NCBI GenBank assembly: GCA_965242725.1
Contig: CBDESZ010000016.1
Span: 1-64,000, forward strand
DNA: 64,000 bases
From: Alkalispirochaeta sp.
GTDB lineage: Bacteria; Spirochaetota; Spirochaetia; DSM-27196; Alkalispirochaetaceae
Direction: 5' to 3'
Shown: positions 27,527 to 51,461 of the stretch, piece after piece
Numbering within the stretch: position 1 is the stretch's first letter
Layout: each line of letters begins with the position of its first letter
Position numbers and translations under genes: made by a program
The notes under the pieces: model-generated
The model's input: only the letters and a program-made list of their open reading frames with translations
Database searches by the model: none
Told to the model about the DNA's origin: nothing

Positions 27527-27684
27527 ATGCGCCTCCCGAACCGGGATATGGCCTATTATCATTCATAAAAAAACTTGATCCAACTGCAAAACGCCTACGA
27601 CATAAATAGAGGTGATTCCGGCGCAATCCGAAGGCGGAGAATGTGCCTGGTCAGATCTGTCCGCCTCCACTATCATATCAATCC

Positions 27685-29766: not shown

Positions 29767-30094
29767 GCGTCCCACCACCCTCAATCTGGTTACGATACGC
29801 TATGCCGGCTTCGTCAAAATGGACGTCCCGCAACATCACCGGGCGTTCGATACGTAAATAGGCGGCAAACAACCAGATATCGTCTGATCCTATTTCCCTA
29901 TGTTCCTGTCGCGTCTGGGCAGTATCAATACTTCCATAGTGAGGTCCCATACCGTGTCGGAGTGTCGGTACATACCATGGATCGTCCGTTCCGTGATAAA
30001 GCAGGAGGGGCACCCCGGCTTCATCCACGACGGAGCTGTCGCGGAACCAGGAGGTAAAGTCCGGATTGCTCTTCGTATCTATCTTTTGGTTCAC
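29705..30094 (-). CDS. Small stand-alone ADP-ribosyltransferase-like domain (ART-PolyVal-like)
   Basis: FTSWFRDSSVVDEAGVPLLLYHGT N-terminal signature and WIPFALEQI C-terminal motif; start uncertain (GTG 30094). Confidence 0.6.
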   Translation of the reverse strand: MNQKIDTKSNPDFTSWFRDSSVVDEAGVPLLLYHGTDDPWYVPTLRHGMGPHYGSIDTAQTRQEHREIGSDDIWLFAAYLRIERPVMLRDVHFDEAGIAYRNQIEGGGTLSWIPFALEQIWEVPEDPSS

Positions 30095-30119
30095 ATCGCG
30101 GCCGCTTATTCGAAACGCC

Positions 30120-30416
30120 TTAGATTCGTTCCTGCCAACTCTTCGGATTCCGTTTGGCATGGAACACGGCGAGAACAACAACACGCTCATCATCCTATAC
30201 AAATATAATTTCGTAGGGGAAACGGCGTGACAGGGCGCGTCGAGCACTTTTGCGTACGCGGGGGTATTGTTGCGGAGTGCGCTGAATGGCATTGAAAACG
30301 GCATCGATGCACAGAAGAAACTCCGAGCCAAGACCCGGAACGCGATCCTCGTACCAATCGAATGCGTCGGTCATCTCCGCTTCAGCTTCCGGGCGGACGA
30401 TAAGCCGACGATTCAT
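30120..30416 (-). pseudogene. RelE/ParE family toxin with an internal nonsense codon
   Basis: ...RRFPYEIIFV*DDERVVVLAVFHAKRNPKSWQERI*: TAG at 30195-30197 interrupts an otherwise complete 98-codon frame. Confidence 0.85.
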
Positions 30417-30634
30417 CGTCTATTCCGGATCCGTTCCCGCACCACCGCCCACGCGTCCCCCTCTTCCGGATTCCGATGATACGCATCCAATCGACGGTCT
30501 ATCTCTGCCTTTTGCTCATCGGTCAGCACGACTTCTTCCGGTACTTCCGCTATCGAATCCCATATATCTTCGACAAGCTGAATACGTTCCGGAACGCTTA
30601 ACCGCAGAACATCTGCTTTTGTAAACGCGCTCAT
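30413..30634 (-). CDS. Addiction-module antitoxin (TIGR02574-like)
   Basis: LSVPERIQLVEDIWDSI...AEIDRRL; ATGA overlap with the toxin gene. Confidence 0.88.
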   Translation of the reverse strand: MSAFTKADVLRLSVPERIQLVEDIWDSIAEVPEEVVLTDEQKAEIDRRLDAYHRNPEEGDAWAVVRERIRNRR

Positions 30635-30744
30635 GAGACATCCATCCTACCGTCGTAGTCGGTTATGTTTCAATCTATTAATTCCCACATGCGCCCGGTA
30701 CGTTCACTCGCGGCACACCGGACCGGCAGTTCCATCGATAGAAC

Positions 30745-30900
30745 GCCGGACGCGTCCTCCGGCCGAAAAGACTACTCAAAGGGGGTAGGTGGATCTGCCG
30801 GATTCCGCGGTAGGCCGGCAAGACGGGCGCGAAAGTCATCCCGCGTCTCAATAATCAGTTGGCGGGTAATCTGAAGTAACGACCACCGATCCTCCGGTGA
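30745..30900 (-). pseudogene. Diverged internal fragment of the DinB-family gene at 35423-36007
   Basis: PEDRWSLLQITRQLIIETRDDFRARLAGLPRNPADPPTPFE*SFRPEDASG versus AEERWSLLQIVRHLVVEECDDFRARLSSVLRNPDDPFPSFEWPFGPEDAPG. Confidence 0.8.
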
Positions 30901-30935
30901 ATCACCGGAAAGACCAGCGCCGAAAGGGTCGCGGC

Positions 30936-33344
30936 TCATCGTCCCGCTACTGTATACCCCATTTGCTCGTAGCTCTTCCTGCGCCGCCTAAAAGAAGCCG
31001 CGAGGACGGGCACCTGCACGTCGGCGTAATCATAGACACGAACCTCGTCTTTGTCGGAATGACGGCGATGCAATCGTCCAACGTATTGTTGTACGATACC
31101 TTTCCAGCTCACGGGAAACGTCAGGAAAAGGGTATCGAGTCTCGGATGATCAAAACCTTCGCCGATGAGTTTACCCGTGGCGAGGAGGACCGAACGGTGC
31201 GATCCTTCAAAGGACTCCAACGCCAGAATCGTGCGCTTCTTCCCCATTCCGCCAACCAAAATCGAACAGTTGTCAACATGCCCTTCCAGCCGATCCTTCA
31301 ATAATTCAAGATGGCGTTTCCGCTCGGAAAGGACCAGCGGTATTCGCCCTTCCTGGACCGCATTCAAGACATCGCGTGCGATAAAGTCGTTCCGCTCGTC
31401 GTCATCTGCCAGTTCGGCGTATATTTCGTGAATCGGCTTGTTTTGAGCGTTTTCGATTACAAGGGATGTTTCGCGGACGATGAGAGTGTGTTCAAATCCG
31501 TGGCGGCGCGACTCCGCCCGTTCGTCCACTTTGTGTCTGATAGGACCACATTGCATATGAATAATTGGATGTCGTCCGTCCTGGCGAATCGGTGTTGCGG
31601 TCAAACCGAGGACATAGGTGGCCCGGACCTGTTTCAGCACTTGTTCAAAACTGAACGCTGAAACGTGATGACATTCGTCGACGATCACCTGTCCATACTC
31701 TGCGACGAGATCATGTACGACGCCATTACGAAAGAGACTTTGAAAGAGAGCGATATCGATAACACCGGATGCTTTCGTCTTGTCTGCTCCGATCACCTTG
31801 ACACTATCATCAGACAAATCAAGGAACTCTCGTAGCCGGTCTCTCCACTGATCCGCAAGCCGGGTACGGTGCACTAGAATCAGGGCATTTCGCTTACGGG
31901 CGGCAATGACGGCCGCGGCGGCAACCGTTTTTCCAAATCCCGTGGGCGCACTTAATACACCACAATCGTATACAAGCAATGAGGCAACGGCTTCGGATTG
32001 GCCCTGCGAGAGTTCACCGATAAACGACGCGGGAATCTCACTTCCCGGATTCCGACGGTCTTCGAGTTCCACATCGGCACCGACATCGCGAAGTAGCTCT
32101 GTTGCGTCTTCTTCGCATCCGCGAGGCAACCCGACATGCTCCGGGAAATCCTCACTACACGAGATTATTCGAGGTATGTTCCAGACGGGTCGCCTCTGTT
32201 TCTGTGCCTTGTAAAACTCGGGGTTACCGAATGCCGCGATCGCGGATAGACGACTCAGCAGCGGAGTCGGCAATCCCTTCTTTTCGATGTAAAAAAGATT
32301 TGCCCGGACCGTCTTCACCGGTTTGTTTCCTGTGAGAGTCGATTCGGCTTCTCCGGCGACACTGCCTGATGGCCTTCGTTCCCACGGAAGGATTTGCGGT
32401 CCGTTGTATTCGGGCAGGCTTGGATTTACATCCGAATAGTGTGGATTTTTTTGTTCATGATCGATAGTGAGAGCCGATGAGACGAGCGCGCGACCGAGTA
32501 GCCGAGGCATATTTGCAAGGGTCTGCGCGAGCATTTGTGGATCGACTTTTCTCAGGGAAGTAATAAGTGCCCATTGATCCGGGTACGGTCGCCCGGAATC
32601 GTCTATGAAAACAGAGTTCCCTTTATCCCGTGCCGTTCGCTGGAGCGGAAGAGCTATCAGATTACCGAAACCGCCCTTGGGAAGGGTGTCCTGGTTTGGA
32701 AAGAAGCGATCAAAGGAATCGAAAGCGATTGGATACTCCTCCATCGCGGAGTGGGACAAAACCAATGTCCCTAGTGCACGCGCGTCCCGGGCAGGGACGG
32801 GTTCAGTGAAAAAGATCCAAACATGAGCACCGTTACCGGAGCGCGAACGCTCGACGTAACACGGGATATTCTCCGCCTCACATCTCGTACGAAAACGGTT
32901 CGCGTCCCGGAACCAGGTCGACTTGTCGAAATCCACCGCAAGAAACCAACACGAGTCGTCCGGTAACAACGGATATATTCCGACCACGATTTGTCCGGTA
33001 AGATGTTGGTAGACGACCTCGGGGTCCAACGGTATAAATTGCTTTTGCCCGAGATCGCGACACACGTTCTTGGGCCGACGGCAGATAGATCGGTCGTCTT
33101 TATGGCAGTGTACCGGGCTGTACCCAGCTTTACCCATACGACTCTCCCACCGAAACGCAAAGACGTCTTGACGTCCACGAAAGACCTTCAAAAAGAGATC
33201 GATTTTCTCAGGGGGAGTTAATGATGTGGTCAACCGATCGGTCTTGGTTTGATCACCCCGAAGAAGGGCATTCTCACGGCGCAGTCTCTCTACTTCCATC
33301 TTGAGGCGATTATTTTCATCTTGAAGTCGCCGAAAATCGGTCAT
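30936..33344 (-). CDS. AEP primase-like domain (TOTE-type) fused to a ResIII/DEAH-box SF2 helicase
   Basis: FLAVDFD, ERSRSGNGAHVWIFF and GNLIALPLQ (primase-like); APTGFGKT, VDECHH, GLTATP, QYVGRLHR (SF2). Confidence 0.85.
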   Translation of the reverse strand: MTDFRRLQDENNRLKMEVERLRRENALLRGDQTKTDRLTTSLTPPEKIDLFLKVFRGRQDVFAFRWESRMGKAGYSPVHCHKDDRSICRRPKNVCRDLGQKQFIPLDPEVVYQHLTGQIVVGIYPLLPDDSCWFLAVDFDKSTWFRDANRFRTRCEAENIPCYVERSRSGNGAHVWIFFTEPVPARDARALGTLVLSHSAMEEYPIAFDSFDRFFPNQDTLPKGGFGNLIALPLQRTARDKGNSVFIDDSGRPYPDQWALITSLRKVDPQMLAQTLANMPRLLGRALVSSALTIDHEQKNPHYSDVNPSLPEYNGPQILPWERRPSGSVAGEAESTLTGNKPVKTVRANLFYIEKKGLPTPLLSRLSAIAAFGNPEFYKAQKQRRPVWNIPRIISCSEDFPEHVGLPRGCEEDATELLRDVGADVELEDRRNPGSEIPASFIGELSQGQSEAVASLLVYDCGVLSAPTGFGKTVAAAAVIAARKRNALILVHRTRLADQWRDRLREFLDLSDDSVKVIGADKTKASGVIDIALFQSLFRNGVVHDLVAEYGQVIVDECHHVSAFSFEQVLKQVRATYVLGLTATPIRQDGRHPIIHMQCGPIRHKVDERAESRRHGFEHTLIVRETSLVIENAQNKPIHEIYAELADDDERNDFIARDVLNAVQEGRIPLVLSERKRHLELLKDRLEGHVDNCSILVGGMGKKRTILALESFEGSHRSVLLATGKLIGEGFDHPRLDTLFLTFPVSWKGIVQQYVGRLHRRHSDKDEVRVYDYADVQVPVLAASFRRRRKSYEQMGYTVAGR

Positions 33345-33362: not shown

Positions 33363-34208
33363 CTACACGTTTTTCTCGCTACGGAGAGCCAACAGATCTT
33401 CCCGGAAATCCTCGATCATCGATTTTGTATAGATCCGATAGATAAAGCCCCGGTTTTGAAATTCTACGAGCTTGCGAAAATCGCTCTGTCGGGCGCGCCA
33501 CGAAATTCCGTCAGTGAAAAGCAGAAATGTTGTGTCATGGCGTTTTTCATTGACGATTCGATTTATGTCTCCAATGACATCGGTCTGCTTGCTGCCGGTA
33601 GCCCCATATCCCTTTACTTCAATGATTATTTCGGGATTGTCGTTTGACGGAATGGCAAAATCGGCTTTTTCCGTCGAGAGGCCGTTCAGTCCGGAGAACC
33701 GTCCCCGGATCGAATAGACGGGGAATATACGTGTCACAACCTCTTCCACAAAGTCTTCGAGATCACGCCCGCGTTTCTGACCTTTAATGGCGCTTCCCCG
33801 TCCGCCCTTGAGACGTTCGGCGATAATGTCCTTCCATGTATAGGTTCCGGATACCGTCTCGGAAATACGTTGCCGTATCAAGAGATGGTCCAGCGTCTTT
33901 ACATAACCTTCCGGATCTTTGAGAAACCGTTTGTTTCCACTCCCCCCGTCCCCGAGTTCCTCAAACAGGCCGCGAATGACACCGTTGTATTCGTCCTTGG
34001 ACATCTCCAGAAAGAGCCGGATTATAGTCGATGCGGCTTCAAAGTCCAGGCGCAAAAGCTCGATCAACTGCTGATCGTCAATGTCCGGAGAGTCTCCGAT
34101 ATTCTCCAGAACCGCCAGGACCCGTCGGGAAAAATCGTCTTTCCAGTCCGTTTCAAGAATAGACAATGAAGATAGAAGCTCATCGGTATTCTGGGTAACT
34201 TTTTTCAA
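33363..34208 (-). CDS. DpnII-like type II restriction endonuclease
   Basis: KADF...IIIEVKGYGATGSKQ and FTDGISW motifs; lies directly downstream of an MTase. Confidence 0.75.
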   Translation of the reverse strand: MKKVTQNTDELLSSLSILETDWKDDFSRRVLAVLENIGDSPDIDDQQLIELLRLDFEAASTIIRLFLEMSKDEYNGVIRGLFEELGDGGSGNKRFLKDPEGYVKTLDHLLIRQRISETVSGTYTWKDIIAERLKGGRGSAIKGQKRGRDLEDFVEEVVTRIFPVYSIRGRFSGLNGLSTEKADFAIPSNDNPEIIIEVKGYGATGSKQTDVIGDINRIVNEKRHDTTFLLFTDGISWRARQSDFRKLVEFQNRGFIYRIYTKSMIEDFREDLLALRSEKNV

Positions 34209-34210
34209 CG

Positions 34211-35299
34211 TTACGTCCCCACAATAAGGTATTCGTCTACCACGGCACGTTTTACGGCGTTGTGTGTACCGAAATGATACCGATGCGGACGCCGATAGAC
34301 TTCGACTCGTCTCTTGTACTGCCCCAGCATCGATTCCAGTACATCCAATGAAGGATACCCGTTTGACGAATAGGATAGAACAATCTTGCTGTCGGTAAAT
34401 TTCCCAAACAGTCGTTGAAAGGCTTCTTCGGCAGTCCTGCGGTAGGAGAAGGGAGTATATTTCTTTTTTATCTTATGCACCTTCGTGTGATAGAGAATTT
34501 CCTCACCTGCCCAGTATTTGGAAAGTCCTTCCAGAAAGTGGTAGCGTTTCACGTAACAGTTATCGTCCGATCTGGGGACGTACGGCGGATCGAGGTATAC
34601 CAGGTCGGGGCGATAAAAGTGTTCATCAAAATCGAAGATATCCATGTTGAACGACAGATGTTCGGCACCGTTTGCAAAGACCGCAGAATTGTAGTGATTA
34701 ATCTGCTCAAGAAAGTGCTCCCTGAGGGAAAGTCTCATATCCCTGCGACCATCGTCGTAACGACTCGTATCACCGGATATGGTAAACACTCCCCGGGGCT
34801 GTTTCTTGACGCTGCTCCGTATCAGCGCCGCCATTGCCAGGGCCCGAAGATACTCATTATCCAGCTTCCTTATATTATGGGATACGAGATCGAGGAACTG
34901 CAGATCCTCCGGAGAGAAGAAAATCCCTTCAAAGGTAGACCGGATAAAATCGGGCGCCGACGGATCGTTTTCAACAAGGATTTCCAGGTCTTCCGGCGCT
35001 ATCCGATTTGTATCATTTTCGATGATTGCCTTGGTAAGAATGTGTGAAAAATGCAGAAAGTCATTGGTCAGGACGCGTTTTCCCATTGCCTTGCAGAGAT
35101 ACGCGACCGCACCGGACCCGCTAAAGGCATCAAGAATGGTGTGGAATTCCAGGTCCTGCAGAACTTCGGATATCCATGGCAACAATCGGTTCTTGCTTCC
35201 CATATATCGAATCAAAGGAAAAGCATCGATGCGTTGTTGAATGGTTTGCTGCGTTTCAGGATCGGCCGGATTGGCGAGCAATTCCACTGGGATATCCAT
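34211..35299 (-). CDS. D12-class N6-adenine DNA methyltransferase
   Basis: RYMGSK, DAFSGSG (motif I), VYLDPPY (motif IV). Confidence 0.92.
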   Translation of the reverse strand: MDIPVELLANPADPETQQTIQQRIDAFPLIRYMGSKNRLLPWISEVLQDLEFHTILDAFSGSGAVAYLCKAMGKRVLTNDFLHFSHILTKAIIENDTNRIAPEDLEILVENDPSAPDFIRSTFEGIFFSPEDLQFLDLVSHNIRKLDNEYLRALAMAALIRSSVKKQPRGVFTISGDTSRYDDGRRDMRLSLREHFLEQINHYNSAVFANGAEHLSFNMDIFDFDEHFYRPDLVYLDPPYVPRSDDNCYVKRYHFLEGLSKYWAGEEILYHTKVHKIKKKYTPFSYRRTAEEAFQRLFGKFTDSKIVLSYSSNGYPSLDVLESMLGQYKRRVEVYRRPHRYHFGTHNAVKRAVVDEYLIVGT

Positions 35300-35422
35300 C
35301 ACACAAGTATATGCCACCACCTGGTCCGGGTAAACCGTGGGAAGTTTAGCTCAAAGAATGATTTGGGAAACACGATAGCCAGAGGGTCGATTCCAGTGAA
35401 ACCCGGCCGCGTCCCCTCCCCA

Positions 35423-36734: not shown

Positions 36735-37823
36735 TCAAGCAGCGAAGTCGAAGTTCTTGAATCGTTCGAAGTCGCGCTTCTTTCGCCGAAACGAGCTCTC
36801 TCTTGGAAACCGACTGGCCTCACCATTCTTCAACATATAGAAGATCGTTCCGATCGTTCTTCCTACAACTGCGACACGGATCTTCTTGCGGGACTTCCCC
36901 AAGGATCGAGCGACAAATCGATCGAGTAGCGGATTGCCGTCCACTAAGTGATGAGAGGCTTCCAACAACAGGGTAAATGTGAGTCGTCGTCCTCGCTTGT
37001 TGATACCGCCAATATGGGTGCGTTCATTTGACGAATCGACTCGAGGTGCGGCCCGGAGATAACTTACGAGATGTCTCCTTGTACGAAAACGTCGGATATC
37101 GACGATGTCCGACATGATGCAGACGCTGCCGAACACGCTTATCCCATGGATCGTCATTAGTACTTGGACTTCCTGAGAATATCGGATGACGCCAAGAGCT
37201 GTGATTCGGTCTCGAGTTGCCTCAAAGTCCGCGTCGATCAATTCGTACTCCCTCAGAAGTTGACGGATCATAAACCGGTCGGAGTCGCGGAAGCTGGGGT
37301 TCGCAAAAACCTCATCGGGGCTTGTCATCAGATCTTGACGACTGATTTGAATCATTCGCTGGCGACATACTGCGAATATTCGATTGCGAATCCGGTTCCG
37401 GGAGGTCGTCAGATACTGGTAGTGCGTGACAAGTACTCGGAGTTCCTGTGTCTTTTCGTCCGGAACAAAGACTTCAGGAAAATGGTCGTCCTTATCGTCG
37501 TTTTCAAGATGGCGTTTGAGTGCGTTAGCAAGTTTCCTGGCATCAACACGATCGGTCTTTTTCACGCCGCCCCATATCAGGCGCATATCCATCGGATTCA
37601 CGACAAAGACCCGCGCTCCCGTTGCCCGAACCAATCCAGCGAAAAAGAACGCCCCGCTGCCCGCCTCAACGCAAACGGCAGCATCTGCATTCAAGTCGTC
37701 GAGGAAACGATCGATACTATCCAGCGGGTATCGTCGATTCTGCCGCTCGATGCCGTTCATCCCTTCTCGAATCAGGTGGACCGTGATTTGCGTCGAATGC
37801 TGATCAACACCAACATAGACCAT
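36735..37823 (-). CDS. IS110-family DEDD recombinase/transposase
   Basis: YVGVDQH, VCVEAG and KTDRVDA (DEDD); C-terminal PRVDSS serine motif; AGGAGG SD. Confidence 0.95.
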   Translation of the reverse strand: MVYVGVDQHSTQITVHLIREGMNGIERQNRRYPLDSIDRFLDDLNADAAVCVEAGSGAFFFAGLVRATGARVFVVNPMDMRLIWGGVKKTDRVDARKLANALKRHLENDDKDDHFPEVFVPDEKTQELRVLVTHYQYLTTSRNRIRNRIFAVCRQRMIQISRQDLMTSPDEVFANPSFRDSDRFMIRQLLREYELIDADFEATRDRITALGVIRYSQEVQVLMTIHGISVFGSVCIMSDIVDIRRFRTRRHLVSYLRAAPRVDSSNERTHIGGINKRGRRLTFTLLLEASHHLVDGNPLLDRFVARSLGKSRKKIRVAVVGRTIGTIFYMLKNGEASRFPRESSFRRKKRDFERFKNFDFAA

Positions 37824-38818: not shown

Positions 38819-39206
38819 GGCTATACACACAAATTCCAGCATGCTAGAATTCTGGCCATGGCGTTGGCCGATACGGTGCTGGAACAGCTTGATCCTCAAG
38901 TCCGATCCTACATCGAAGATCTCGAGAAACAGTCCGCATCACTGGCACGTGAAAATGAACACTTATCCCAGGAGAAAGAAGCCCTTTCCAACGAGGTGCA
39001 GTCTCTTGTGTACACCGGCCCAAAACGGACACGTATTCCGGTGGAAAGCGGACAGTGATTCCGGCGTAATCCGGACACCGATTCCGGCGGAAAACGGACA
39101 GTTTTTCCGGAGCGCCGGAATCGATTCAGCCTGACAGAAGAGATCCTCGATCAATACGGGCACTCCCGGCAAACTGGTGGGTAACATCATTGTGAGGGAG
39201 TACGGA

Positions 39207-40754: not shown

Positions 40755-40756
40755 GG

Positions 40757-41506
40757 ATGAGCACCATGAACAATAATCAGGCAACGATCAACAGAATGAC
40801 CGAGATGCGCCTGCATGGAATGGCCCAGGCGTTTCGCACGCTTCAGGAAACCGGAAAAACCATGGATCTCACCATCGACGAGACGATCACGTACCTGATC
40901 GACGCCGAATGGGATGAGAAGCACAACCGACGGCTCGATCGGCTTACCCGGGCTGCCCGGTTCCGCTACCAGGCTGCATTGGAAGATATCGACTACACCC
41001 TGGATCGGAATCTGGACAAGAACCAGATTCTTCGGCTCGCCGACTGCTCGTGGATATCCCGGGGGCAGGATCTTCTCATCACCGGTCCAACCGGTTGTGG
41101 AAAAAGCTTTCTCGGATCAGCCTTCGGGCATCAGGCGTGCCAGCACGGCCATTCCGTGGCGTACTTTTCCGCATCTCGCCTGTTCAACGAAATCGAAGCG
41201 GCCAAGGCGGATGGAACATACCTGAAACATCTGACACGAATCATGAAGAGCGCATTACTGCTCATCGACGACTTCGGCCTGGAGCCGCTCAACCATACCT
41301 CTCGAATGGCTCTCCTTGAAATCCTTGAGGACCGGCACCGACGGAAATCAACAATGATCATCTCTCAGCAACCGGTAGAGAACTGGCATGCCCTCATAGG
41401 CGACCCGACGATCGCCGACGCAATCATGGATCGGCTTGCATTTCATTCTCACCGAATTGAGATCACCGGCGACACGGTGAGGAGGAAACTCTATGCGGTA
41501 GATTGA
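40757..41506 (+). CDS. istB: IS21 helper ATPase
   Basis: GPTGCGKS, LLIDDFG, ADAIMDRL. Confidence 0.95.
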   Translation: MSTMNNNQATINRMTEMRLHGMAQAFRTLQETGKTMDLTIDETITYLIDAEWDEKHNRRLDRLTRAARFRYQAALEDIDYTLDRNLDKNQILRLADCSWISRGQDLLITGPTGCGKSFLGSAFGHQACQHGHSVAYFSASRLFNEIEAAKADGTYLKHLTRIMKSALLLIDDFGLEPLNHTSRMALLEILEDRHRRKSTMIISQQPVENWHALIGDPTIADAIMDRLAFHSHRIEITGDTVRRKLYAVD

Positions 41507-43260
41507 CCTGAAAACGGACAGCTGTTATGAGTGATGGCGAGGATTTTGTTCCTTCAGGCAGCTGTCCGTTTTCGCCCGGAATCCCTGTCCGAAATCACCG
41601 GAGTACACACTCTCGAAGAGAAGCTCCAGCTGGCTGTTTTTCTCCGTTTCGGTCGTTCCAGTGAGCAATCCACCGTCGCTCCCGGCCAGGGCGATCTGTT
41701 TACCGAGGCCGATGACACAACCACGGCGGAGTCAGAAGAATCCGAGGACAAAGACACCGTAACGGTCGCCGCCCATACGAAGAAAAAGCCCGGCCGCAAG
41801 CCGATTGATCCGGCGCTTCCCCGCTTTGAACGGGTCATCGATATTTCCGATGGCGACAAACAGTGTGCCTGTGGTCACCAGATGGTACGGATCGGTGAAG
41901 AAGTTACCGAGCGCATTCAGGTCATTCCGGAGAAGATCTGGGTCGATCGTATCGTTCGCCCCAAATACGCATGCCACCAATGCGAAGGGTCCGGTGATGA
42001 ATCCAAACCCGCAGTGCGAATAGCGCCGGTGGAACCGACAGTGGTTCCCGGAGGTATCGCCACCGCGAGCCTGATCGCCTTTATCCTGGTTAACAAGTTT
42101 GTGGATCACTTGCCGTTCTACCGGCAGGAAAAACGATTTGAGCGGATCGGGATCACCATATCCCGAGAGAACATGAGTAACTGGACGATCCGCTCTGCCC
42201 AGGTACTCCAGCCATTGATCGATCGGTTTCGGACGCTGATTCGCGGAGGGCCGGTGGTGAATGTCGATGATACCCGGGTACAGGTCATGAAAGAACCGGG
42301 GCGGGCAGATACAACGAACAGCTTTATGTGGCTTGCCCGCGGCGGGCCGCCGGATTCACCGGTAACACTGTATCACTACAGCCCGACCCGGAGCGCCGAC
42401 TATCTCAGACGACTCCTCTCAGGGACTGCGCTCTACATGCAGGGTGACGCGTATCAGGCGCATGAGCAACTGGCAAAGGAAGAACCCGGCATTATGCGGG
42501 TTGGGTGCTTCGCCCATGCCCGGCGAAAGTTTCACGAGGCGGCGAAGGGGAGCAAGAAAGCCGGCGCTGCCCACGAGGGGATGAAATACATCGGCCAGCT
42601 CTACCGGATCGAGACGGAGTTGCGTGCATTGGGTCTCTCCGACGATGAGTTCTCTAGGAAACGACGTGAGAGGACAGAACCGATCATGGCGAAGTATCAT
42701 CAATGGTTGACCAAGAAGCAGCAGGCCGTTGTTCCTTCAACTCTTCTGGGAAAGGCAGTGACCTATACGCTCGACGAATGGCCGGCGCTTGTTCGCTACC
42801 TCGATCACCCGGCACTCACCCCGGACAATAATGCCGCCGAAAACGCAATCCGCCCCTTTGTTCTGGGCCGGAAGAACTGGCTGTTCTCCGGAAGCCCGAA
42901 CGGCGCTGCCGCCTCATGCGCGATCTATTCATTGATCGAGACTGCGAAGCAGAACAGCCTGAACCCGTTCGCGTATCTGTACTATGTCCTTGATCGGGCT
43001 CCACGGATCATCGCCGATTCCGAATGGGATGAGCTGCTTCCCGGTAAGCTCACTGAGGAAACGATATCAGCATCCTACCCCGCACCGGGGCGTTTAATTT
43101 GACGGTTACGACTAAAAACGAGACATGCCAGTCGAGAGTCACCAAGAAAAGTGCAAAAGAATCTGGACACTACCCGAACGCTTCGAAGGTATTCTGTATA
43201 GATTTTGCGACAGCCTCTATATGCTTCGTAAATGTGATGACCGTTCACGAAGAGGATAGT

Positions 43261-44196
43261 TTAAGGAGTCCCACTATAGGAAACCCTGGTACCAATAATC
43301 GCGCCCGCCGCCTTACGTTCATCAATGCCGTGTTCGTCTCCGTGTATCCGCAGTACCGTACAATCACGGAATCTTTGAGCGGCCAGGAGCATCCCGAGAC
43401 GATGTGGTTTTGGCCCTAATGGAACGATCGAAACGTCCGACTCGTGGATAAACTCTGAAATGAGTTCAGCTATCGCTTGAAACACGATGCGAACACTCCG
43501 AATGGGCAGAGGAAACACCTGATCGGCGTCTTCTAATATTGCTTTGTTCGCGTCACGCGCCCTTTGTGAGTATTCGTCATGTGCACCGGGATCGGCATAG
43601 ATAGCGATTAGTACTTCTGGTTCCAATTCTTCGACCACTGCTGTAGCAGACCATCCATCGAATCCTAAACCAACTATTGCGGTCGACATAGCAAGTGTAT
43701 ATGGCATACCCTCAAAACCAGGTATAGCGGCAACACTCTGTAGTTCCAGCCGCGGGTGCTCAGGCATATATTCTGCCAAAGAATAGAAGAAATCAATCGT
43801 AACATCGCGATCAAAGGATGTATTGGAGCACCAACTTAGTAATGCAGCGTACCACGATGTACTCATCGAGCTGTAGTCGACAAGCAGATGAAGATTGCTG
43901 GTACTGGAGTTTCGGACTCTGTCTAGGATTGAGTATATCGTTTGTTGTGATTTTCGTTGCTCGGAATGAAACTCAGAGGAAAAATGTGTTGAAAAAAAGG
44001 TATCACTCATTTTGCGCTGATGATTATCCGAATAATCCGTGTATCCGAGTACATGAGTATTACAATCAAGCTTCCCCTTTAGTGCAGTGGCTAAGTGTGT
44101 TGCTCTCGATTCATAACCTGACGCAAATATAGCCGCATCATACGATGTCGTTTGTGAAGTCTCCAAATCAATGTCTTCAACTCTATATAACTTCAT
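43261..44196 (-). CDS. Hypothetical alpha/beta protein (possibly tandem Rossmann-like/CARF-like), last gene of the four-gene operon
   Basis: 311 aa; ASGYESR, LVDYSSM, VGLGFD and VPLGPKP motifs; ATGA overlap with the ATPase. Fold is inference only. Confidence 0.7.
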   Translation of the reverse strand: MKLYRVEDIDLETSQTTSYDAAIFASGYESRATHLATALKGKLDCNTHVLGYTDYSDNHQRKMSDTFFSTHFSSEFHSEQRKSQQTIYSILDRVRNSSTSNLHLLVDYSSMSTSWYAALLSWCSNTSFDRDVTIDFFYSLAEYMPEHPRLELQSVAAIPGFEGMPYTLAMSTAIVGLGFDGWSATAVVEELEPEVLIAIYADPGAHDEYSQRARDANKAILEDADQVFPLPIRSVRIVFQAIAELISEFIHESDVSIVPLGPKPHRLGMLLAAQRFRDCTVLRIHGDEHGIDERKAAGAIIGTRVSYSGTP

Positions 44197-46016
44197 TGTT
44201 CCTCATTTATTGGTAGAGATAATTGAGTAGATTCGACGCCATCGCCGTTCTCAATCTGCTCCTGACCCTGGCTCAAGATCTTTGATAGTTTGACTGGCCT
44301 TCCATTTCTCGGTAGTAGACGGAAGTGCGGGCATAATGCAAACGCGAGTTGAAATGTGCCAGTTTTTTCGGGTAGTTGGTCTGGCGAAGACCGCCTTCTT
44401 CGTGGATAGAGTAAGCCGAGTGAGACGGCCCGACTGATAACGGGCCAGTATTCTTCCGGCACGTCTTCGTCGAATTGGATCGCTGAATACACATCGGTAG
44501 TCAAAGGCGAAGTATGAAACCTATTCCGAAAATACATGCCAATTCGGTCGATAAGTTCGAAAAGTGCGGTCCCAACAGCCTCGTCGCTCCTCTTTCTTTC
44601 TAGTTCATCTGCTGAAAAAGAGATTAGTTTCTCGGATTGGCGCGTCTTGGAAACTACGGGTTCTTCTTTATTCACCGAAGACCTGGCCGCTGACTTAAAC
44701 TCGAGCAGGTACTTGTTATATATTCGTATCAGCTTTCTTGTGTTAAAATCCGCACATCTGACGATCAACTCAGCACCGGAAAATACGTCAATTTGTGCGT
44801 TACCGCGCTCGTTAGCTACCGCTTCGCGCAATAGCAGTGCACCGCGAATCTTTCGATCGATTGAATCTCCAAACTTTGCGGGCGAACTTGTGACAAGCTC
44901 ACGAGCTCGGTCTCTAGTTTCGGTGCTACAATACTTTTCAATGAGTTTATCGATTCTATCGTCCAGTCCTTTCGAGTACTTGTGGGGCTGAAGAAGAACT
45001 GAGTGTCCAAAGAGTTTGTGTAGAGTGATCTCTGACGTGAATGCATGAGATCTTGCCACCCGCTTATTGAGGATCGTAGCAGCAAATTGGTACCCCGGCG
45101 CGTCGGTTCGGCCACTTCTTAATACGGGGTCTTGGTCAATATACACGTATTCGAAATCGTGTCCTATATCTAGCGGGGCAGCTATATTCGTAGCAAGTGT
45201 GCTATGGTAATAAGGCATCGTAACAATCTTGAGAAACAGATTTGCAGACTCTGCCCGCATCAGAGTATTTAGGACACGAAGGTGTGATTCTTCTAGATAC
45301 TCTGCTTCGTCGATACAAAGTGCCCAAGCTGCACTTTGCGACAATTCTAGGATCTCCGTCGCGATCGGAATGCCCGTCCTAATCATGCTTAACAGCGGCA
45401 CATCGAGTTCGTAACCTACTGACATGTCGGACCGGTCATTCTCATTCGATCTTTTCGCCTGTAATAGGTTCTTGTGGTGTGCGATCTCCAGGAAATGCTT
45501 CTGTATACTTCCGAGCTGAGCGATCGAAATCTTTCCACCAGTCCACAAACTCGATAGCTCTTGAGACAGTAATCTCTCCCTACGAGCCCGACGACCGGGA
45601 TCTTCGAAATACCGATTAAGGCAACTTCGAAGTGATTCAAGGAAACTAATTACGGTGAGTAGGTTAAAACGCCACTGAAACTGACTTTCAGCTTCCTCTT
45701 TTGAACTCCAAGGCTTGCTACGAAGTGCTCCTACCCACTCCAAACTCGTCGGTGTGTACATGCCTATGAATGCACGATCTTCTATCGCACGCTTGGCAGG
45801 CCTTTCATCTAAGAGCGATAAATGGGAATGTGATAACATCCGTGCCAGAGAAGTCTTTCCGGCTCCGCGTGAGCCGAGGATCACATGATGCTTCGGTGTC
45901 ATCAGACGCCAAAACGCTTTAAGGGGAACGAAAGTCGCGGCGATGTCTTCAGCGTTGAGATGCTTGGCATTTTCAACTTCAAAAAGGTTTCTCGACACCT
46001 GAAATTGCTTACTCAA
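44193..46016 (-). CDS. ORC/CDC6-like (STAND-related) AAA+ ATPase
   Basis: Walker A GSRGAGKT, Walker B LCIDEAE, probable winged-helix C-terminus. Confidence 0.75.
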   Translation of the reverse strand: MSKQFQVSRNLFEVENAKHLNAEDIAATFVPLKAFWRLMTPKHHVILGSRGAGKTSLARMLSHSHLSLLDERPAKRAIEDRAFIGMYTPTSLEWVGALRSKPWSSKEEAESQFQWRFNLLTVISFLESLRSCLNRYFEDPGRRARRERLLSQELSSLWTGGKISIAQLGSIQKHFLEIAHHKNLLQAKRSNENDRSDMSVGYELDVPLLSMIRTGIPIATEILELSQSAAWALCIDEAEYLEESHLRVLNTLMRAESANLFLKIVTMPYYHSTLATNIAAPLDIGHDFEYVYIDQDPVLRSGRTDAPGYQFAATILNKRVARSHAFTSEITLHKLFGHSVLLQPHKYSKGLDDRIDKLIEKYCSTETRDRARELVTSSPAKFGDSIDRKIRGALLLREAVANERGNAQIDVFSGAELIVRCADFNTRKLIRIYNKYLLEFKSAARSSVNKEEPVVSKTRQSEKLISFSADELERKRSDEAVGTALFELIDRIGMYFRNRFHTSPLTTDVYSAIQFDEDVPEEYWPVISRAVSLGLLYPRRRRSSPDQLPEKTGTFQLAFALCPHFRLLPRNGRPVKLSKILSQGQEQIENGDGVESTQLSLPINEEQ

Positions 46017-46017
46017 A

Positions 46018-47238
46018 TTACGACTCCTTCAAGAGGATCAGGTTGTCCAGATTTTCACCATGCGGGGTTAGCGATAGGTCCGGGGGCAGGATCTCCAATG
46101 CCGATCTGACGCGTTCGAAGGGTACGTATTCCAATGATAACATTGCTGCGAGATCTCGCCACTTGATGTGATCTTTAGTCGAGAACACTTCCCTTATCTT
46201 TGGTTCCACTCTAGATAACAATTCTCCTTCACGCAAGTATGAGCCAAAGGGATATCGATGGGCCACTCCATTGTGGGCGTCGCTAGGTTTCCATCCCTTG
46301 GCAGCTGTATGGGTCCAACTTTTGACTTCACCGTACGCCGAAAGATCTTTGGGATCTCTACCGTTCACTTCAATTATATGGAACTGATTATTGACCACTC
46401 CGCTCCACCTCGAGTCTAAGATTGCAGAAAAGCTCCCTGCTCCTATCACTACAAGTGGAAACGCACCATTTATACTGACGGAATGTACATTCGGTGCGTG
46501 CTTGTGTCCATGTATCAACAGATCAAAATGATTTCTCGAAAGAGATTGAATTAAGTTCATACTATTGGTCATAACGCTAAAATCAGGTTCATCAGGTAAC
46601 GGGTCACTATAAGCCAACACATGATGATGAACGACAAAAATCCTTAGTTGGTCGTGGTTTGGACTTTTCTGAGTTATTAATTTATCAATTGTTTCCACAG
46701 TTCGCTGTGGGATCAGGCCGTGGTGATTCGATTTCTCGGGTCGATCATGCCAGGATGAATTGAATGTCATAACGTATGCTTCCGGGAAGCGCCATTCGCA
46801 GACAAATGGAGCAATGTCGAAGGAGCCTCGGGCACTTTCATGTCTTTCGGTGAGGTACGACGCAGTGCGTAAAAGGGGATCGTAGCGTTGCTTGTGTCGC
46901 AATCCTGTTGGATCATCGCTGTCGATCCGTAGAACACTCCAATCCACGTCATGATTACCTGGAACGAAAACTACCTTATCATTAGATATGTTAAGTACGT
47001 TGCATATCCGCTTTATCGCTGTGACGGCCAATTCCATTTCCCTCGGATCTGCTCTGTGAGATAGGTCTCCGGGTACTATGAGAATATCTGCGGAAAGACT
47101 TTCAGTTCTAACAAAGTTTTCGAAACTATCGAGATAGTTGTCAACGAAATGTTTTTCGTCTCTTGAATCAGGACATAAATCATTTGCCTTGGACCCGTCC
47201 CCAGAATGAAGATCACTTACTACTGCAATGCGTGTCAT
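46018..47238 (-). CDS. Calcineurin-like metallophosphoesterase with C-terminal extension
   Basis: SDLH, GDLS, PGNHD, HHH and HGHKH metal-binding motifs are all intact. Confidence 0.92.
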   Translation of the reverse strand: MTRIAVVSDLHSGDGSKANDLCPDSRDEKHFVDNYLDSFENFVRTESLSADILIVPGDLSHRADPREMELAVTAIKRICNVLNISNDKVVFVPGNHDVDWSVLRIDSDDPTGLRHKQRYDPLLRTASYLTERHESARGSFDIAPFVCEWRFPEAYVMTFNSSWHDRPEKSNHHGLIPQRTVETIDKLITQKSPNHDQLRIFVVHHHVLAYSDPLPDEPDFSVMTNSMNLIQSLSRNHFDLLIHGHKHAPNVHSVSINGAFPLVVIGAGSFSAILDSRWSGVVNNQFHIIEVNGRDPKDLSAYGEVKSWTHTAAKGWKPSDAHNGVAHRYPFGSYLREGELLSRVEPKIREVFSTKDHIKWRDLAAMLSLEYVPFERVRSALEILPPDLSLTPHGENLDNLILLKES

Positions 47239-48044
47239 GATGACAATCCTAGATTTAAGTTTGAGGCGACGATTTCTGAGGCCGGGTTCCGACGTTCTGC
47301 CTTGCTGGCCATCCGACGTGGAACAGAAATAGTGCTAAAGTTCCACTTGTTTTTTAAGTTTTGTATTTGTTCACAATCCGCATAACTGAGTACAAAAGCC
47401 GCTCCACGTTTGTCAATAACCTCAAGAACACGCATGAGTCTCTCTAAGTCGTCAAAATCGAACAGTTTTGGCCCATATTGGGTGAAGGATTTTACCCCAC
47501 GGCGAAAATACGGTGGATCTAGATATACAAAGTCCCGTTCTCGAACATTGCTAAGAAGAAAATCCTCAAAGTCTATGCAGGAAAACGTTACTCTATTCAT
47601 TGTTGCACTTATTTCTCTCAGTCGGTCTTTTGATGGTAGTTGACCGGTTTTCCTTGGCGCATAGGGCACATTAAACTCTCCCTTGTGATTGGTTCGATAC
47701 AGACCATTGAAACAATACCGATTCAAAAAGATGAATCTCGCTGCCCTTGCTACATTATCGTCGAGATTTGTCTGGCTTCTGACGTGATAGTAGAATGCTT
47801 TCGTGTTGGGCATTTTTTGCAAATTGTCGGCCACCTCGTCTGGTCGATCAACAATCGTTTGGTATGTTTTAACTAGTTCGCCATTTAAATCGTTGAGTTG
47901 CGCCGTATGTGGAAGAAGGCGAAAGTAAAGAGCAGCAGATCCCGCAAAAGCTTCGAGGTATCTTACAAAGTGTGGAGTCCAGAATTCCTGAAGCAATGGT
48001 AGTAGAGCTTTCTTACTACCAGCCCACCGAAAAATAGGTTCCAT
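47235..48044 (-). CDS. Dam-like (D12 class) N6-adenine DNA methyltransferase
   Basis: RWAGSK, EAFAGSA, FNGLYRTN and VYLDPPY motifs. Confidence 0.93.
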   Translation of the reverse strand: MEPIFRWAGSKKALLPLLQEFWTPHFVRYLEAFAGSAALYFRLLPHTAQLNDLNGELVKTYQTIVDRPDEVADNLQKMPNTKAFYYHVRSQTNLDDNVARAARFIFLNRYCFNGLYRTNHKGEFNVPYAPRKTGQLPSKDRLREISATMNRVTFSCIDFEDFLLSNVRERDFVYLDPPYFRRGVKSFTQYGPKLFDFDDLERLMRVLEVIDKRGAAFVLSYADCEQIQNLKNKWNFSTISVPRRMASKAERRNPASEIVASNLNLGLSS

Positions 48045-48455
48045 TTTATAACTATAAACTAGAATTTATGTGTCGCACAGCGCTTCATTTCGAAGACCCA
48101 CCAACCATTTCTCTAAAGTCTCGCGGTCCGCCTCATCGTGGTATGAGAAACTCTAGAAAATCGGCAATCCTTCCATACATAAAGATAAAGTACGATATTT
48201 TGCGCACTTTCATGGGAGTTGAAAGAAACGGCCCTCGACTGGATAGTGTGAGTTACCCCTAACCAACTATCACAGGAGGACTGTCGCGGGCCAGGCATAA
48301 TCCCCATAAATTTGGCGTTGGGGCCATGGATATTCCCCACCCGCCGAGCCCCACGGGGCCATTTATATTCCCCAGTTTTTCCGCAATAGGGCCATCCATA
48401 TTCCCCACCTGATGGGGTGATACCGGTACCCTGATGCGCAGGAGGACTGTGGGTC

Positions 48456-50069
48456 ATGGGATACCGTATGCTGAAGATTGATCACCTCTATGAGGTATAC
48501 CGTCGCGCCATCGCCGGAGAAAGCAAAAGCGCGATCGCCATACACACTGGATGGGATCGCAAGACGATCGGGAAATACATCAGGATTCTCTCGGAGCGGT
48601 CACTACTGCCGGCAGAATTGGCAGTCAGCCGGGATGCGTTTCAGAGACGGGCAGGAGATCTTGCCGATCAGCCGCGTGAGAAGTCTACACCGGCGAGGGA
48701 TCAGCTTATTGATCATCTTGATGAACTGCGCGAACTGATCGCTCCGTCCAAAGATGAGAACGGGAAAATCGAAAAACCGATGCGCCCGAAATCGGCATAT
48801 CGGGTGATCCTCCGGCGCCATAACCTCTCCATCGGATACTCGTCGTTCAAACGGTTCGCCCGGGAACACGGTTTAATGGAGGTTGCAAAGAAGACGTATA
48901 TCCGTATTGAGTTACCGCCGGGTCGGGAGGTCCAACTTGATTACGGCACCATGGGGCTTCTGGCCGTGGATGGGCGGAATCGCACGATCTACGCCTTCTG
49001 TGCAATTCTTGCTCACTCTCGCAAGCCCTTTGTCCAATTGGTCACCAGCCAGAGCGAACAGAGCTTTGCGGAGAGCGTGGTTGAGATATTCCATTTCTAC
49101 GGCGGTGTCACCGAGTTTCTCACGGTGGATAACCTGAAGGCTGCGGTGATTAAACCGGACCTCTGGGACCCGCAGCTGAACCGGTCTCTGGCAGAAGTGG
49201 CTGAGTATTACGGAACCTTTGTGAATACCGCTCGGGTAGTGACGGCAACAGATAAAGGGAAGGTCGAGCGGATTATTCCGGTTGTCAGGGAAGCGTATCG
49301 TGTCATCAGAGCAGTCCATCCCACCGCGACCCTCACGGAAATGAACCGCTACATGCTTCAATGGTGTGTCGACGAATACGGTACGGAACCGCATGGAACG
49401 ACTCGTATTCCACCTGAGGAAGCGTTTGTGGCCGAGCAAAATGCACTCAAACCGCTCCCGGAATCGCGATTCGAGCCGGCTTCCTGGGCCTATCCGAAAG
49501 TTCACAAGGGTGATGGCTTTCTGAGCTACCACAAGATGCGCTTTGCCGTTCCGGCGAAATACCGGGGAAAACAGGTGGCGGTACGCGCTACCAGGCGCCT
49601 GATCGAGATTTTTCATGGCCCGGAGCGTATCCGCATCTATCCATATGAGCCGGGAACGCGGGTGTATTACTTCACCAGCGACTTTCCGGCGGAAAAACAG
49701 GCGATGATGGACGGGTCCTATCCACAACACCTTCTCCAGCGCGCGAATTCGTACGGGAGTGCAGCCCGGGATCTGATTTCCGCAATCCTGGCGCCTCACG
49801 CGTATCTCAACGCCCGTCAGGCTCAGGGACTACTCCGTGTTATGGATGAATTCCGCGAACATCCGGACTTTGATACTCACTGCCTCACCGCACTGCGCCG
49901 CCGGATCGTCGTTCCCAAAACGTTCAAAGCATTGTTTGAACTAGACAGGACCGCCGGCAGGCGAGGAACACTCTCTACCACGCCCGCTGTCGATATGACG
50001 ATGGCACGGGATATCACCTATTTCTTTGACCTTCAGGAGGAACTCGATGCAGCAGGCTCACGAAATTGA
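48456..50069 (+). CDS. istA: IS21 transposase
   Basis: VQLDYG, VDNLKAAV, DKGKVER. Confidence 0.93.
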   Translation: MGYRMLKIDHLYEVYRRAIAGESKSAIAIHTGWDRKTIGKYIRILSERSLLPAELAVSRDAFQRRAGDLADQPREKSTPARDQLIDHLDELRELIAPSKDENGKIEKPMRPKSAYRVILRRHNLSIGYSSFKRFAREHGLMEVAKKTYIRIELPPGREVQLDYGTMGLLAVDGRNRTIYAFCAILAHSRKPFVQLVTSQSEQSFAESVVEIFHFYGGVTEFLTVDNLKAAVIKPDLWDPQLNRSLAEVAEYYGTFVNTARVVTATDKGKVERIIPVVREAYRVIRAVHPTATLTEMNRYMLQWCVDEYGTEPHGTTRIPPEEAFVAEQNALKPLPESRFEPASWAYPKVHKGDGFLSYHKMRFAVPAKYRGKQVAVRATRRLIEIFHGPERIRIYPYEPGTRVYYFTSDFPAEKQAMMDGSYPQHLLQRANSYGSAARDLISAILAPHAYLNARQAQGLLRVMDEFREHPDFDTHCLTALRRRIVVPKTFKALFELDRTAGRRGTLSTTPAVDMTMARDITYFFDLQEELDAAGSRN

Positions 50070-50817
50070 ACACGAACTTAAACGACTACGCATGCCCGGA
50101 GCGTACCAGCAGCTTGATCACCGGTTGATTGAGGCTCAAGAGCAGAGCCTCGGTTATCTCGAGTTCCTCGCTCTGGTTCTCCACGACGAACTGGCAAACC
50201 GGGAGGCGAACAACTTCACCAAACGGTTGAGTCAGGCATCCCTGGGAACCCGGGAAACCTTCGATCGCTTCGATTTCCGTTTCAATGATGAAGTCTTTCC
50301 GGCGGCAACGATCCGCGACCTGGCATCATGCCGGTTTATCCAGCAGCACACCAACCTCGTTATTGCCGGTCCTCCCGGAATCGGGAAGACGTTCATTGTG
50401 AAAGCGATCGGCCACGAGGCATGCCGCCAGGGATTCACCGTGCTGTTCCGCAGCACTCAGCGGCTGCTTTCCAGCCTCCTTACCGCTTCACCTGATCGGC
50501 AACGACGGATGCTCAAGAAAGCGTGTTCCGTGGATGTCCTCATCCTCGATGATTTCGCCTTCCGCTCTCTTGATCAGCATGAGGCGGAGATGCTGTACAT
50601 CATCGCCGAAGAACGGAACGGTATCTCCTCGACCATTCTCACTTCCAACAGACCGCCGCAGGACTGGTACAGCATCTTTCCCGATCCCATCGTTGGTGGT
50701 GCTATTCTCGACCGCATGGTCTCGGGAGCGATTAAACTCATTACTTCGAAAGGGCGCTCGTACCGGAAGGAAGTACACGGCTCCCACACCTCAAAATCAG
50801 CTCCGCCAAAATCGTGA
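50047..50817 (+). CDS. istB: IS21 helper ATPase
   Basis: GPPGIGKT, LILDDFA, AILDRM. Confidence 0.95.
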   Translation: MQQAHEIEHELKRLRMPGAYQQLDHRLIEAQEQSLGYLEFLALVLHDELANREANNFTKRLSQASLGTRETFDRFDFRFNDEVFPAATIRDLASCRFIQQHTNLVIAGPPGIGKTFIVKAIGHEACRQGFTVLFRSTQRLLSSLLTASPDRQRRMLKKACSVDVLILDDFAFRSLDQHEAEMLYIIAEERNGISSTILTSNRPPQDWYSIFPDPIVGGAILDRMVSGAIKLITSKGRSYRKEVHGSHTSKSAPPKS

Positions 50818-50914
50818 CACCCCCCCGGATACCCTTATTTTCACTGGGGAATATGGATGGCCCTGGGGTGGGGAATTACGCGGCCCTTGACAAGGACCGC
50901 CATGAATGGAAATT

Positions 50915-51400
50915 ACGCCCCAAACCTGCCGGCTGTTACGATTTAAACCTGCCACCCATTCCGGCTAAACCTGCCGGGTATTCCGACGTAAACCTGCCAA
51001 ATTTCGGCGGTCATCGTAACGGGTGGCAGGTTTGTATCGGAATGGAGATTTGCATCCTCGCAAGAAACGTTGGAACTCGTCATCGTAGCCGATGAGGAGG
51101 AACCGAATGCCGAAAGCGAGGATCAGCATGAGTAAAATACGAGAAATCATTCGGTTAAACGAATCTTCCGGATTATCCATCCGGAAGATCAGCCGCGCAC
51201 TGGCCGTATCCCGGCCGGTGATGTCGGAGTATCTCAAACAGGCAGAAAATGCCGGACTGAAATGGGCGGATGTGGAGACGATGAGCGACGATGAGTTGCT
51301 CGAGCGTTTGCGGGATAGCGAAACACGGCGATATGATCCACGATACGAAGTTCTGATGAATCTGATGCCGGGAATGGTCAACGAGCTGGGGCGACGCCGC
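50915..51400 (+). mobile_element. IS21-family remnant no. 3: left end plus truncated istA (ATG 51107)
   Basis: AAACCTGCC four times at 22-23 bp spacing (50922, 50945, 50967, 50990); MSKIREIIRL...LSIRKISRAL HTH; lost after ~98 codons. Confidence 0.85.
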
Positions 51401-51461
51401 GGCCGTATGGGTGAGATACCGGTCGTGTGGAAACCACACGACCGGAGCTTTGCTCCTGAGC

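Follow-up and report, generated by a model that had tools for sequence, protein, structure and literature searches.

A conserved four-gene cassette in Alkalispirochaeta combining a Dam-family methyltransferase, a calcineurin-like phosphoesterase, an ORC/CDC6-like ATPase and a tandem CARF protein: a candidate reader of its own DNA mark

Among described immune systems, Metis is the one whose way of working appears closest to that of a four-gene cassette found in DNA of Alkalispirochaeta sp. (contig CBDESZ010000016.1 of assembly GCA_965242725.1, positions 1 to 64,000; this whole 64,000-nucleotide stretch is called the window). Metis type I, also named DS-9 and PUA-Cal-HAD (MisA/MisB), is described in two reports as a system in which N6-methyl-dAMP (m6dAMP) from phage-driven genome degradation activates, via a PUA domain, a calcineurin-like effector that degrades NAD+ and deoxynucleoside triphosphates (dNTPs; 10.1101/2025.11.05.686725; 10.64898/2026.01.15.699771). 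Versions with a methylase of their own (type III) are predicted by the authors of the first report (10.1101/2025.11.05.686725). The cassette encodes a Dam-family DNA methyltransferase, a metallophosphoesterase, an ATPase and a tandem CARF protein. It was found to be a real, intact and widely conserved immune-type cassette, and the mechanism proposed for it would be a new form of sensing modified nucleotides. The reading preferred here, to which a probability of about 0.45 is given, is that of an abortive-type immune cassette that makes its own DNA mark and reads this mark as a danger signal, much as Metis does, with CARF in the place of PUA.

With Metis type I the cassette shares the calcineurin-like catalytic domain (PF00149; catalytic region of the DS9_1 model), and with Metis in general the link to adenine methylation, the predicted type III likewise carrying its own methylase. 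Replacement of the effector by a membrane protein, seen at one metagenome locus (L066), has a counterpart in type II. The defining features of Metis are missing, however: the effector has no PUA domain, and no HAD/MisB gene was found by comparison of the four genes with Pfam or as a recurring neighbour of 29 four-gene loci. The cassette has instead a tandem CARF protein and an ORC/Cdc6-like ATPase. Like BREX type 1, it combines an N6-methyltransferase, an ATPase of the ORC/Cdc6 clade and a phosphoesterase without a classical restriction nuclease; unlike BREX type 1, it has a methyltransferase of the Dam D12 type, a calcineurin fold instead of an alkaline-phosphatase fold, an ATPase of 607 residues compared with about 1200, and a CARF protein, and the four proteins gave no PglZ, BrxC, PglX or BrxA/B/L matches in PADLOC, Pfam and NCBIfam. 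The Can1 and SAVED sensors of type III CRISPR and CBASS also have two CARF-like domains per chain and a composite pocket (Z 13.8 and ~8, respectively), but the CARF protein has no fused effector and the operon no cyclase. No restriction endonuclease lies beside the methyltransferase (no nuclease match, no conserved flanking gene), which separates the cassette from type II restriction-modification (R-M) systems, and the ATPase differs from Avs and NLR-like STAND proteins by having neither a C-terminal repeat sensor nor a fused effector.

The ATPase and effector slots are filled by families of the calcineurin-CE, HD-CE and PRTase-CE conflict-effector systems with an ORC-CDC6-like ATPase (PF24389, PF24390, PF24391 and PF24408), and the closeness of these Pfam accession numbers suggests that this ATPase/effector neighbourhood was catalogued together. 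The 311-residue protein is a full-length member of the CARF6 clade (PADLOC PDLC01910-01924), for which the PADLOC label CARF_CARF_CARF stands against two CARF-like halves in the structure model; the clade reportedly goes back to the CARF classification of Makarova et al. 2020 (NAR gkaa635). With its parts present in PADLOC and Pfam, the whole cassette has probably been catalogued computationally already, presumably by Makarova et al. 2020 and Nicastro et al. 2023 (NAR gkad879), and an earlier reading of the window made from the letters only (the sequence-only reading) was probably right to allow for this. A literature search that did not cover Makarova 2020, Nicastro 2023 and Burroughs 2015/2020 found no paper describing or experimentally testing the four-gene set, a search for "CARF6" gave no relevant match, and the cassette is not described in the available parts of PMC4012209, PMC10853773, PMC12839542, the ParA preprint and the Tiamat preprint.

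The sequence-only reading had proposed a defence system of four co-directional, translationally coupled genes, and this arrangement was confirmed. The four minus-strand open reading frames (ORFs; Table 1) span 4.8 kb (43261-48044) in the order methyltransferase, phosphoesterase, ATPase and tandem CARF protein; ATGA overlaps couple methyltransferase with phosphoesterase (47235-47238) and ATPase with CARF (44193-44196), and a 1-bp gap at 46017 separates phosphoesterase and ATPase. Its further statements on base composition, motifs and nucleases held as well: the GC content is 46.0% in the cassette but 56.5% in the window and 57.7% in the genome, the catalytic motifs are intact in the methyltransferase (DPPY), the phosphoesterase (DLH/GD/GNHD/HHH/HGHKH) and the ATPase (Walker A GSRGAGKT, Walker B LCIDEAE), and none of the four proteins matched a nuclease family over cutoff in profile scans with Pfam, PADLOC and NCBIfam. 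A promoter and terminator scan gave results no better than chance level. Horizontal acquisition is indicated because a full-length PF24389 match is absent from all 40 related genomes, 16 of which belong to the same genus; the matches there are at P-loop level only. Among 400 genomes of the phylum, CARF was found in one and the ATPase in two.

Table 1. Positions of the cassette genes and of further features in the window.
Feature	Position	Strand	Evidence and remarks
Dam-family (D12) N6-adenine DNA methyltransferase, 269 residues	47235..48044	-	PF02086 E 9.7e-47; TIGR00571 dam E 4e-64, above cutoff
Calcineurin-like metallophosphoesterase, 406 residues	46018..47238	-	PF00149 E 1e-13; proposed effector
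ORC/CDC6-like (STAND-related) AAA+ ATPase, 607 residues, TTG start	44193..46016	-	PF24389 E 1.8e-90
Stand-alone tandem CARF protein (CARF6 clade), 311 residues	43261..44196	-	PADLOC CARF6 PDLC01912 E 5e-53
IS66-type transposase ORF	41531..43102	+	ORF translation, family name by eye; flank, convergent with the 3' end of the cassette
IS21-type element with istA/istB-like ORFs (48456-50817)	48351..50868	-	Flank, ~300 bp upstream of the methyltransferase; name by eye
IS110-like ORF	36735..37823		Name by eye
Type II R-M pair: D12 adenine methyltransferase (369 residues) and restriction-enzyme-like gene (281 residues)	33363..35320	-	
PDC-S41 candidate defence gene and PrimPol-SF2 helicase fusion (802 residues)	27643..33344		PDC-S41 E 3e-271
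1310-residue protein with many tandem ~85-residue repeats	15271..19203	+	Repeats resemble FN3/chitobiase by eye; the protein is probably a surface lipoprotein

Conservation of the unit was assessed by a metagenome scan with an ATPase alignment. This gave 54 loci, from which one rearranged contig (L033) was dropped and only those with enough flank were counted; the sample is biased to ATPases near the query (31-57% identity). The phosphoesterase lies upstream of the ATPase in 51 of 52 loci, the CARF gene downstream in all 37, and a Dam-like methyltransferase is present in 39 of 41. All four genes occur together in 29 of 32 informative loci, which fall into 25 clusters at 90% ATPase identity, 16 at 70% and 7 at 50%. 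The linkage of the methyltransferase with the other three genes, for which a neighbourhood check had been advised, was thereby borne out, and the more general proposal of a conserved conflict cassette with phosphoesterase effector, ATPase switch and ligand-binding regulator is supported by this linkage together with the folds. No flanking gene recurs in more than two loci among 133 flanking ORFs of the 29 four-gene loci, so that the unit consists of exactly four genes.

Three of the 32 informative loci, L037 (see below), L047 and L066, depart from this layout. At L047 the first slot holds a different D12 adenine methyltransferase: compared with L048, identity is 81% for the ATPase (87.5% for its C-terminal region), 84% for CARF and 78% for the phosphoesterase, and the two methyltransferases cannot be aligned (best E 0.15), though both are adenine enzymes of the DPPY type. 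L066 (5734-10355) has Dam, ATPase and CARF6 without the phosphoesterase, and a putAbiC/AbiP-like membrane protein follows the CARF gene. In L021 and L022 the methyltransferase is split by an inserted transposase-like ORF or frameshifted, and the three partner genes are apparently whole. A scan of genome contigs with the single ATPase gave one weak, uninformative locus; viral contigs held no relative, phage records no match, and E. coli genomes no match to the Pseudoalteromonas copy by distant blastn. The cassette occurs widely, though sparsely, and the copy in the window is not unique.

More distant relatives were collected from 17 plasmid regions found by tblastn, after exclusion of near-duplicates, one partial match of 69 residues and ~140 short partial matches (mostly on enterobacterial plasmids), and from two genome regions. 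In all 19 loci the ATPase gene is followed by a CARF6 gene, which is split by an insertion in L086, and every intact CARF protein scanned matches CARF6 models. The effector slot varies: it holds PRTase-CE in ten loci, calcineurin in four, HD-CE in four and a SIR2 domain fused to the ATPase in one. A gene for a DNA-modifying enzyme adjoins the cassette in 17 of the 19 loci, encoding a beta-type N4/N6-methyltransferase (five, one of them frameshifted), a C5-methyltransferase (four), a gamma-type N6-methyltransferase (four, one of them an unannotated ORF assigned from its NPPF motif), Dam (three) or a TGT/DpdA-like protein (one, a weak assignment at E 6e-4). The position of this gene changes from upstream to downstream (L090, L091) or convergent (L094). 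For 21 pairs, the tree of the ATPases agrees with that of the CARF proteins (Mantel r 0.81; 0 of 5000 permutations), and their clades follow modifier and effector type. The constant core is the ATPase plus the tandem CARF protein, with effector and DNA mark exchangeable.

Some distant cassettes have further neighbours. ThyX adjoins six of the 19, in the C5-methyltransferase/HD-CE and beta-methyltransferase/PRTase-CE clades (L079, L080, L082, L087, L088 and L093), and a dUTPase, a dTMP kinase and a gene of the uracil-DNA glycosylase (UDG) family each adjoin one (the loci concerned being L090, L074 and L086); these neighbours may act on pyrimidine nucleotide pools as cleaners or antidotes. In L074 (G195:C232:1-5390) the SIR2-ATPase fusion is followed by CARF6, the TGT/DpdA-like gene, DUF6884 and the dTMP kinase, and this variant may respond to a deazaguanine mark on DNA. 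The methyltransferase slot of the Pseudoalteromonas locus (L075:3144-4988) holds a 614-residue protein with no Pfam match and, by eye, a PD-(D/E)xK-like motif near residue 500. A DarT/DarG pair lies directly upstream of the PRTase-CE/ATPase/CARF6 cassette with the unannotated N6-methyltransferase ORF (L091:1668-3385).

The 311-residue protein, left as an unknown by the sequence-only reading, was identified as a tandem CARF protein of the CARF6 clade by the PADLOC scan and by structure matching. Its AlphaFold2 (AF2) model (mean predicted confidence, pLDDT, 92) has two Rossmann-like halves. Foldseek alone gave ambiguous results with this model, and nothing significant came from searching PDB sequences with the CARF alignment; with VIA-align the top match was Can1 (6sce), aligned over both of its CARF domains (Z 13.8, root-mean-square deviation (rmsd) 3.2, 221 aligned, residues 19-288). 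Single CARF domains match the second half (residues ~168-290, Z 10-12.7) and SAVED domains match both halves (Z ~8). A profile search gave 2297 representatives with E <= 0.001, of which 432 reach E <= 1e-30, and R31, D107, Y138, G178 and K263 are invariant among 148 CARF sequences. The protein is proposed to be a nucleotide sensor and has no effector domain of its own; its ligand is considered below. The earlier proposal of a ligand-binding regulator is supported in this way; the sensor role that had been given to the ATPase falls more likely to the tandem CARF protein.

The ATPase matches PF24389 over the whole model (304.8 bits compared with a cutoff of 27; positions 1-571 of 571, residues 10-577 of 607). 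Its AF2 model (pLDDT 86.9) ends in a winged-helix-like region, and its fold is matched best by an archaeal ATPase (2qen; Z 13.6 with 322 aligned, rmsd 4.7) and next by Cdc6/Orc1 (2qby; Z 12.5), with TnsC and NLRs below them and MuB and BrxC also among the matched folds. All 21 diverse members compared keep Walker A and B intact, four having DD instead of DE. No repeat family was matched in Pfam that would provide a C-terminal sensor of the TPR/LRR type, and the ATPase is proposed to be a switch or scaffold. A predicted complex of ATPase and CARF scored 0.26 against a mark of 0.32, which speaks neither for nor against an interaction. A second homologue search with the diverse ATPase alignment added one sequence, a kinase-fused protein matched over only 3%.

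The catalytic domain of the phosphoesterase begins at residue 3, and its best NCBIfam match is the MisA-type model DS9_1 (E 3e-27; 95 bits compared with a cutoff of 420), restricted to profile positions 195-474; no N-terminal PUA domain was found, DS9_1 positions 1-194 being unmatched, and the homologues share the same start position. The metal motifs are all kept in 36 of 36 aligned homologues. Distant homologues, in an alignment that spans residues 1-377 of the window protein, contain PF24408 (wHTH-Calcineurin_assc), and the small C-terminal domain is probably a winged helix-turn-helix. A PDB sequence search with the phosphoesterase alignment gave generic metallophosphoesterases only. Assignment as an Mre11/SbcD-like nuclease was considered less likely (SbcD E 0.002 compared with 3e-27 for DS9_1). 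The catalytic motif of the methyltransferase is DPPY in 25 and DPPF in three of 28 full-length homologues. The class of this enzyme, the putative signal writer, is clear, and the intact, conserved motifs suggest that it is active. By tblastn no second Dam-like gene was found in the host genome, though two further D12-family loci exist.

In the mechanism proposed for the window cassette, the Dam-family enzyme would methylate adenines of the host, and degradation of the chromosome by a phage or another invader would lead to accumulation of N6-methyladenine (m6A) mono- or short oligo-deoxynucleotides, by the precedent of Metis in E. coli. The tandem CARF protein would bind such a ligand in the cleft between the two modelled halves and, in the bound state, switch the ORC/Cdc6-like ATPase, which would behave like a STAND protein whose sensor is supplied in trans by another gene. 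An ATPase oligomer might then activate the calcineurin-like enzyme which, judged by MisA/PUA-Cal, would destroy NAD+ and/or dNTPs and halt phage replication. In other lineages the mark would be 5-methylcytosine (m5C), N4-methylcytosine (m4C)/m6A or a 7-deazaguanine-like base, and the effector would be HD-CE, PRTase-CE, SIR2 or a membrane Abi protein. The effectors are of types directed at nucleotides, NAD+ or the membrane and are never DNA-cutting nucleases, so that the methyltransferase does not simply shield DNA from the effector; something must read the mark. The CARF ligand would need another source than a cyclase, as no cyclic-nucleotide synthase is encoded in the cassette, and the host genome (92% complete) gave no match to SMODS (PF18144) or Cmr2-type Cas10 (TIGR02577), in a search that did not extend to Csm1-type Cas10 and other cyclase families. 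The best discriminating observation is the exchanged methyltransferase of L047 compared with L048: such an exchange would be tolerated by a reader of the released base but hardly by one that recognises a DNA site, so that the pair fits readout at the level of the base and favours a modified base or nucleotide over a sequence site as the signal.

Several points weigh against a CARF protein that senses a self-made mark. Characterised CARF and SAVED domains bind cyclic or linear ribo-oligoadenylates, not methylated deoxynucleotides, and the window protein has T113 where 92% of the sequences have R. Congruence of the trees amounts to co-inheritance and could not by itself single out CARF as the reader of the mark. 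The methyltransferase exchange is a single case, and ligand, activity and phenotype are predictions. The Dam/calcineurin clade has no MisB-like cleaner gene, the modifier gene is missing at three loci (L075 and L086 among the distant ones, and L037, with no methyltransferase-like ORF within the 752 bp available), and the locus sample is skewed towards ATPases close to the query. The winged-helix-like end of the ATPase and its DNA-binding ORC/TnsC-like relatives suit a model in which DNA itself is read.

Such a model, akin to BREX and DISARM, would have the ATPase assemble via its winged helix on unmethylated sites of the invader and trigger the effector, with the methyltransferase protecting self and the tandem CARF protein setting a threshold or holding the complex off. 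The resemblance of the ATPase fold to DNA-binding Orc1/Cdc6, TnsC, MuB and BrxC speaks for it, as do the nearly constant presence of a modifier gene and the parallel between methyltransferase, ORC/Cdc6 ATPase and phosphoesterase without restriction nuclease and PglX/BrxC/PglZ (PMC12839542). In PADLOC, however, ATPase and phosphoesterase have no BREX or DISARM model matches beyond the P-loop level, a conserved two-CARF nucleotide pocket would be superfluous, and the C-terminal region of the ATPase is still 87.5% identical where the methyltransferase has been replaced by an unalignable enzyme. Sensing of unmethylated DNA, which the sequence-only reading had offered as one option, is kept as a rather unlikely rival, the exchange weighing against its sequence-site form. 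A guard or "missing-self" arrangement, which is judged improbable, would turn the logic round: a ligand derived from methylation would keep CARF, ATPase and effector off until methylase inhibitors, DNA mimics or nucleotide sponges of the phage release them, and the cassette would then be an addiction module too. The obligatory presence of a modifier gene, whose position varies, the frequent location on plasmids (17 loci), the lack of a cleaner gene and the reported use of CARF effectors by Panoptes-type guard systems would fit this. Against it stand the split or frameshifted methyltransferases with apparently whole partners (L021/L022) and the copies without one (L037, L075), though host methylases could cover all of these; the Pseudoalteromonas host group of L075 presumably has a Dam of its own as a rule. 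We know of no DNA methylase that makes a diffusible repressing signal.

Whether the ligand is a modified nucleotide at all is the point at issue in a further alternative, in which the tandem CARF protein would sense a conventional cyclic or linear oligonucleotide provided in trans by type III CRISPR, CBASS, RNA decay or phage enzymes, the methyltransferase being a protection gene that travels along. The closest folds are indeed the cA4-binding CARFs of Can1, Can2, Cam1 and Csm6 together with SAVED domains, and the CARF6 models derive from a CRISPR-CARF classification; this explanation is nonetheless considered distinctly improbable, for it leaves the retention of five unrelated modifier types unexplained, no gene recurs beside the 29 four-gene loci, and the host search (in which Csm1-type Cas10 was not covered separately) found neither SMODS nor Cmr2-type Cas10. 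A role outside phage defence, as a module for plasmid or integrative and conjugative element exclusion or for dormancy triggered by DNA damage, would agree with the common occurrence on plasmids and, by way of nucleotide-pool or uracil-DNA stress, with the ThyX genes beside six of 19 distant loci and the single dUTPase, dTMP kinase and UDG neighbours. It is thought very unlikely, as the effectors (SIR2, calcineurin-CE, putAbiC) and the neighbours (R-M systems, HNH, DarTG, NACHT) are of the kinds typically met in phage defence islands.

In the window, the cassette lies between IS66-type and IS21-type elements, in agreement with the sequence-only reading; the insertion sequence (IS) family names here and in Table 1 were recognised from translations by eye, with no library scan. 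The IS21-type element upstream of the methyltransferase has inverted-repeat arms at 48351-48407 and 50843-50868. The description of the region as a defence-rich island is modestly true: a PDC-S41 gene, a PrimPol-helicase and a type II R-M pair are present, but at 8-16 kb from the cassette. The D12 methyltransferase of this R-M pair could be an additional source of m6A. On the other flank, the IS66-type element (38121-43102) is apparently interrupted between tnpB and tnpC by a second IS21-type element with inverted-repeat arms at 39072-39101 and 41562-41591. Short direct and inverted repeats cluster at 50912-51043, ahead of a truncated IS21-like istA fragment (51092-51475).

For the family as a whole it is tentatively suggested, as a possibility somewhat less probable than the reading given for the window cassette, that tandem CARFs have been repurposed to read modified deoxynucleotides from genome degradation, and that the signal is relayed in trans, via a STAND-like ATPase without a sensor, to interchangeable effectors. 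The ligand might be m6dAMP here, and sister clades might read m5dCMP, m4dCMP or deazaguanine nucleotides. The compact, intact cassette and its natural variants with swapped marks and effectors make the question directly testable. If this is true, the first class of CARF ligands not made by a cyclase would have been found, with a DNA methylase as the signal source, and an orphan CARF clade without a cyclase partner would gain a ligand hypothesis. The logic of sensing one's own degraded, methylated genome would then extend from PUA to CARF and from m6A to several marks.

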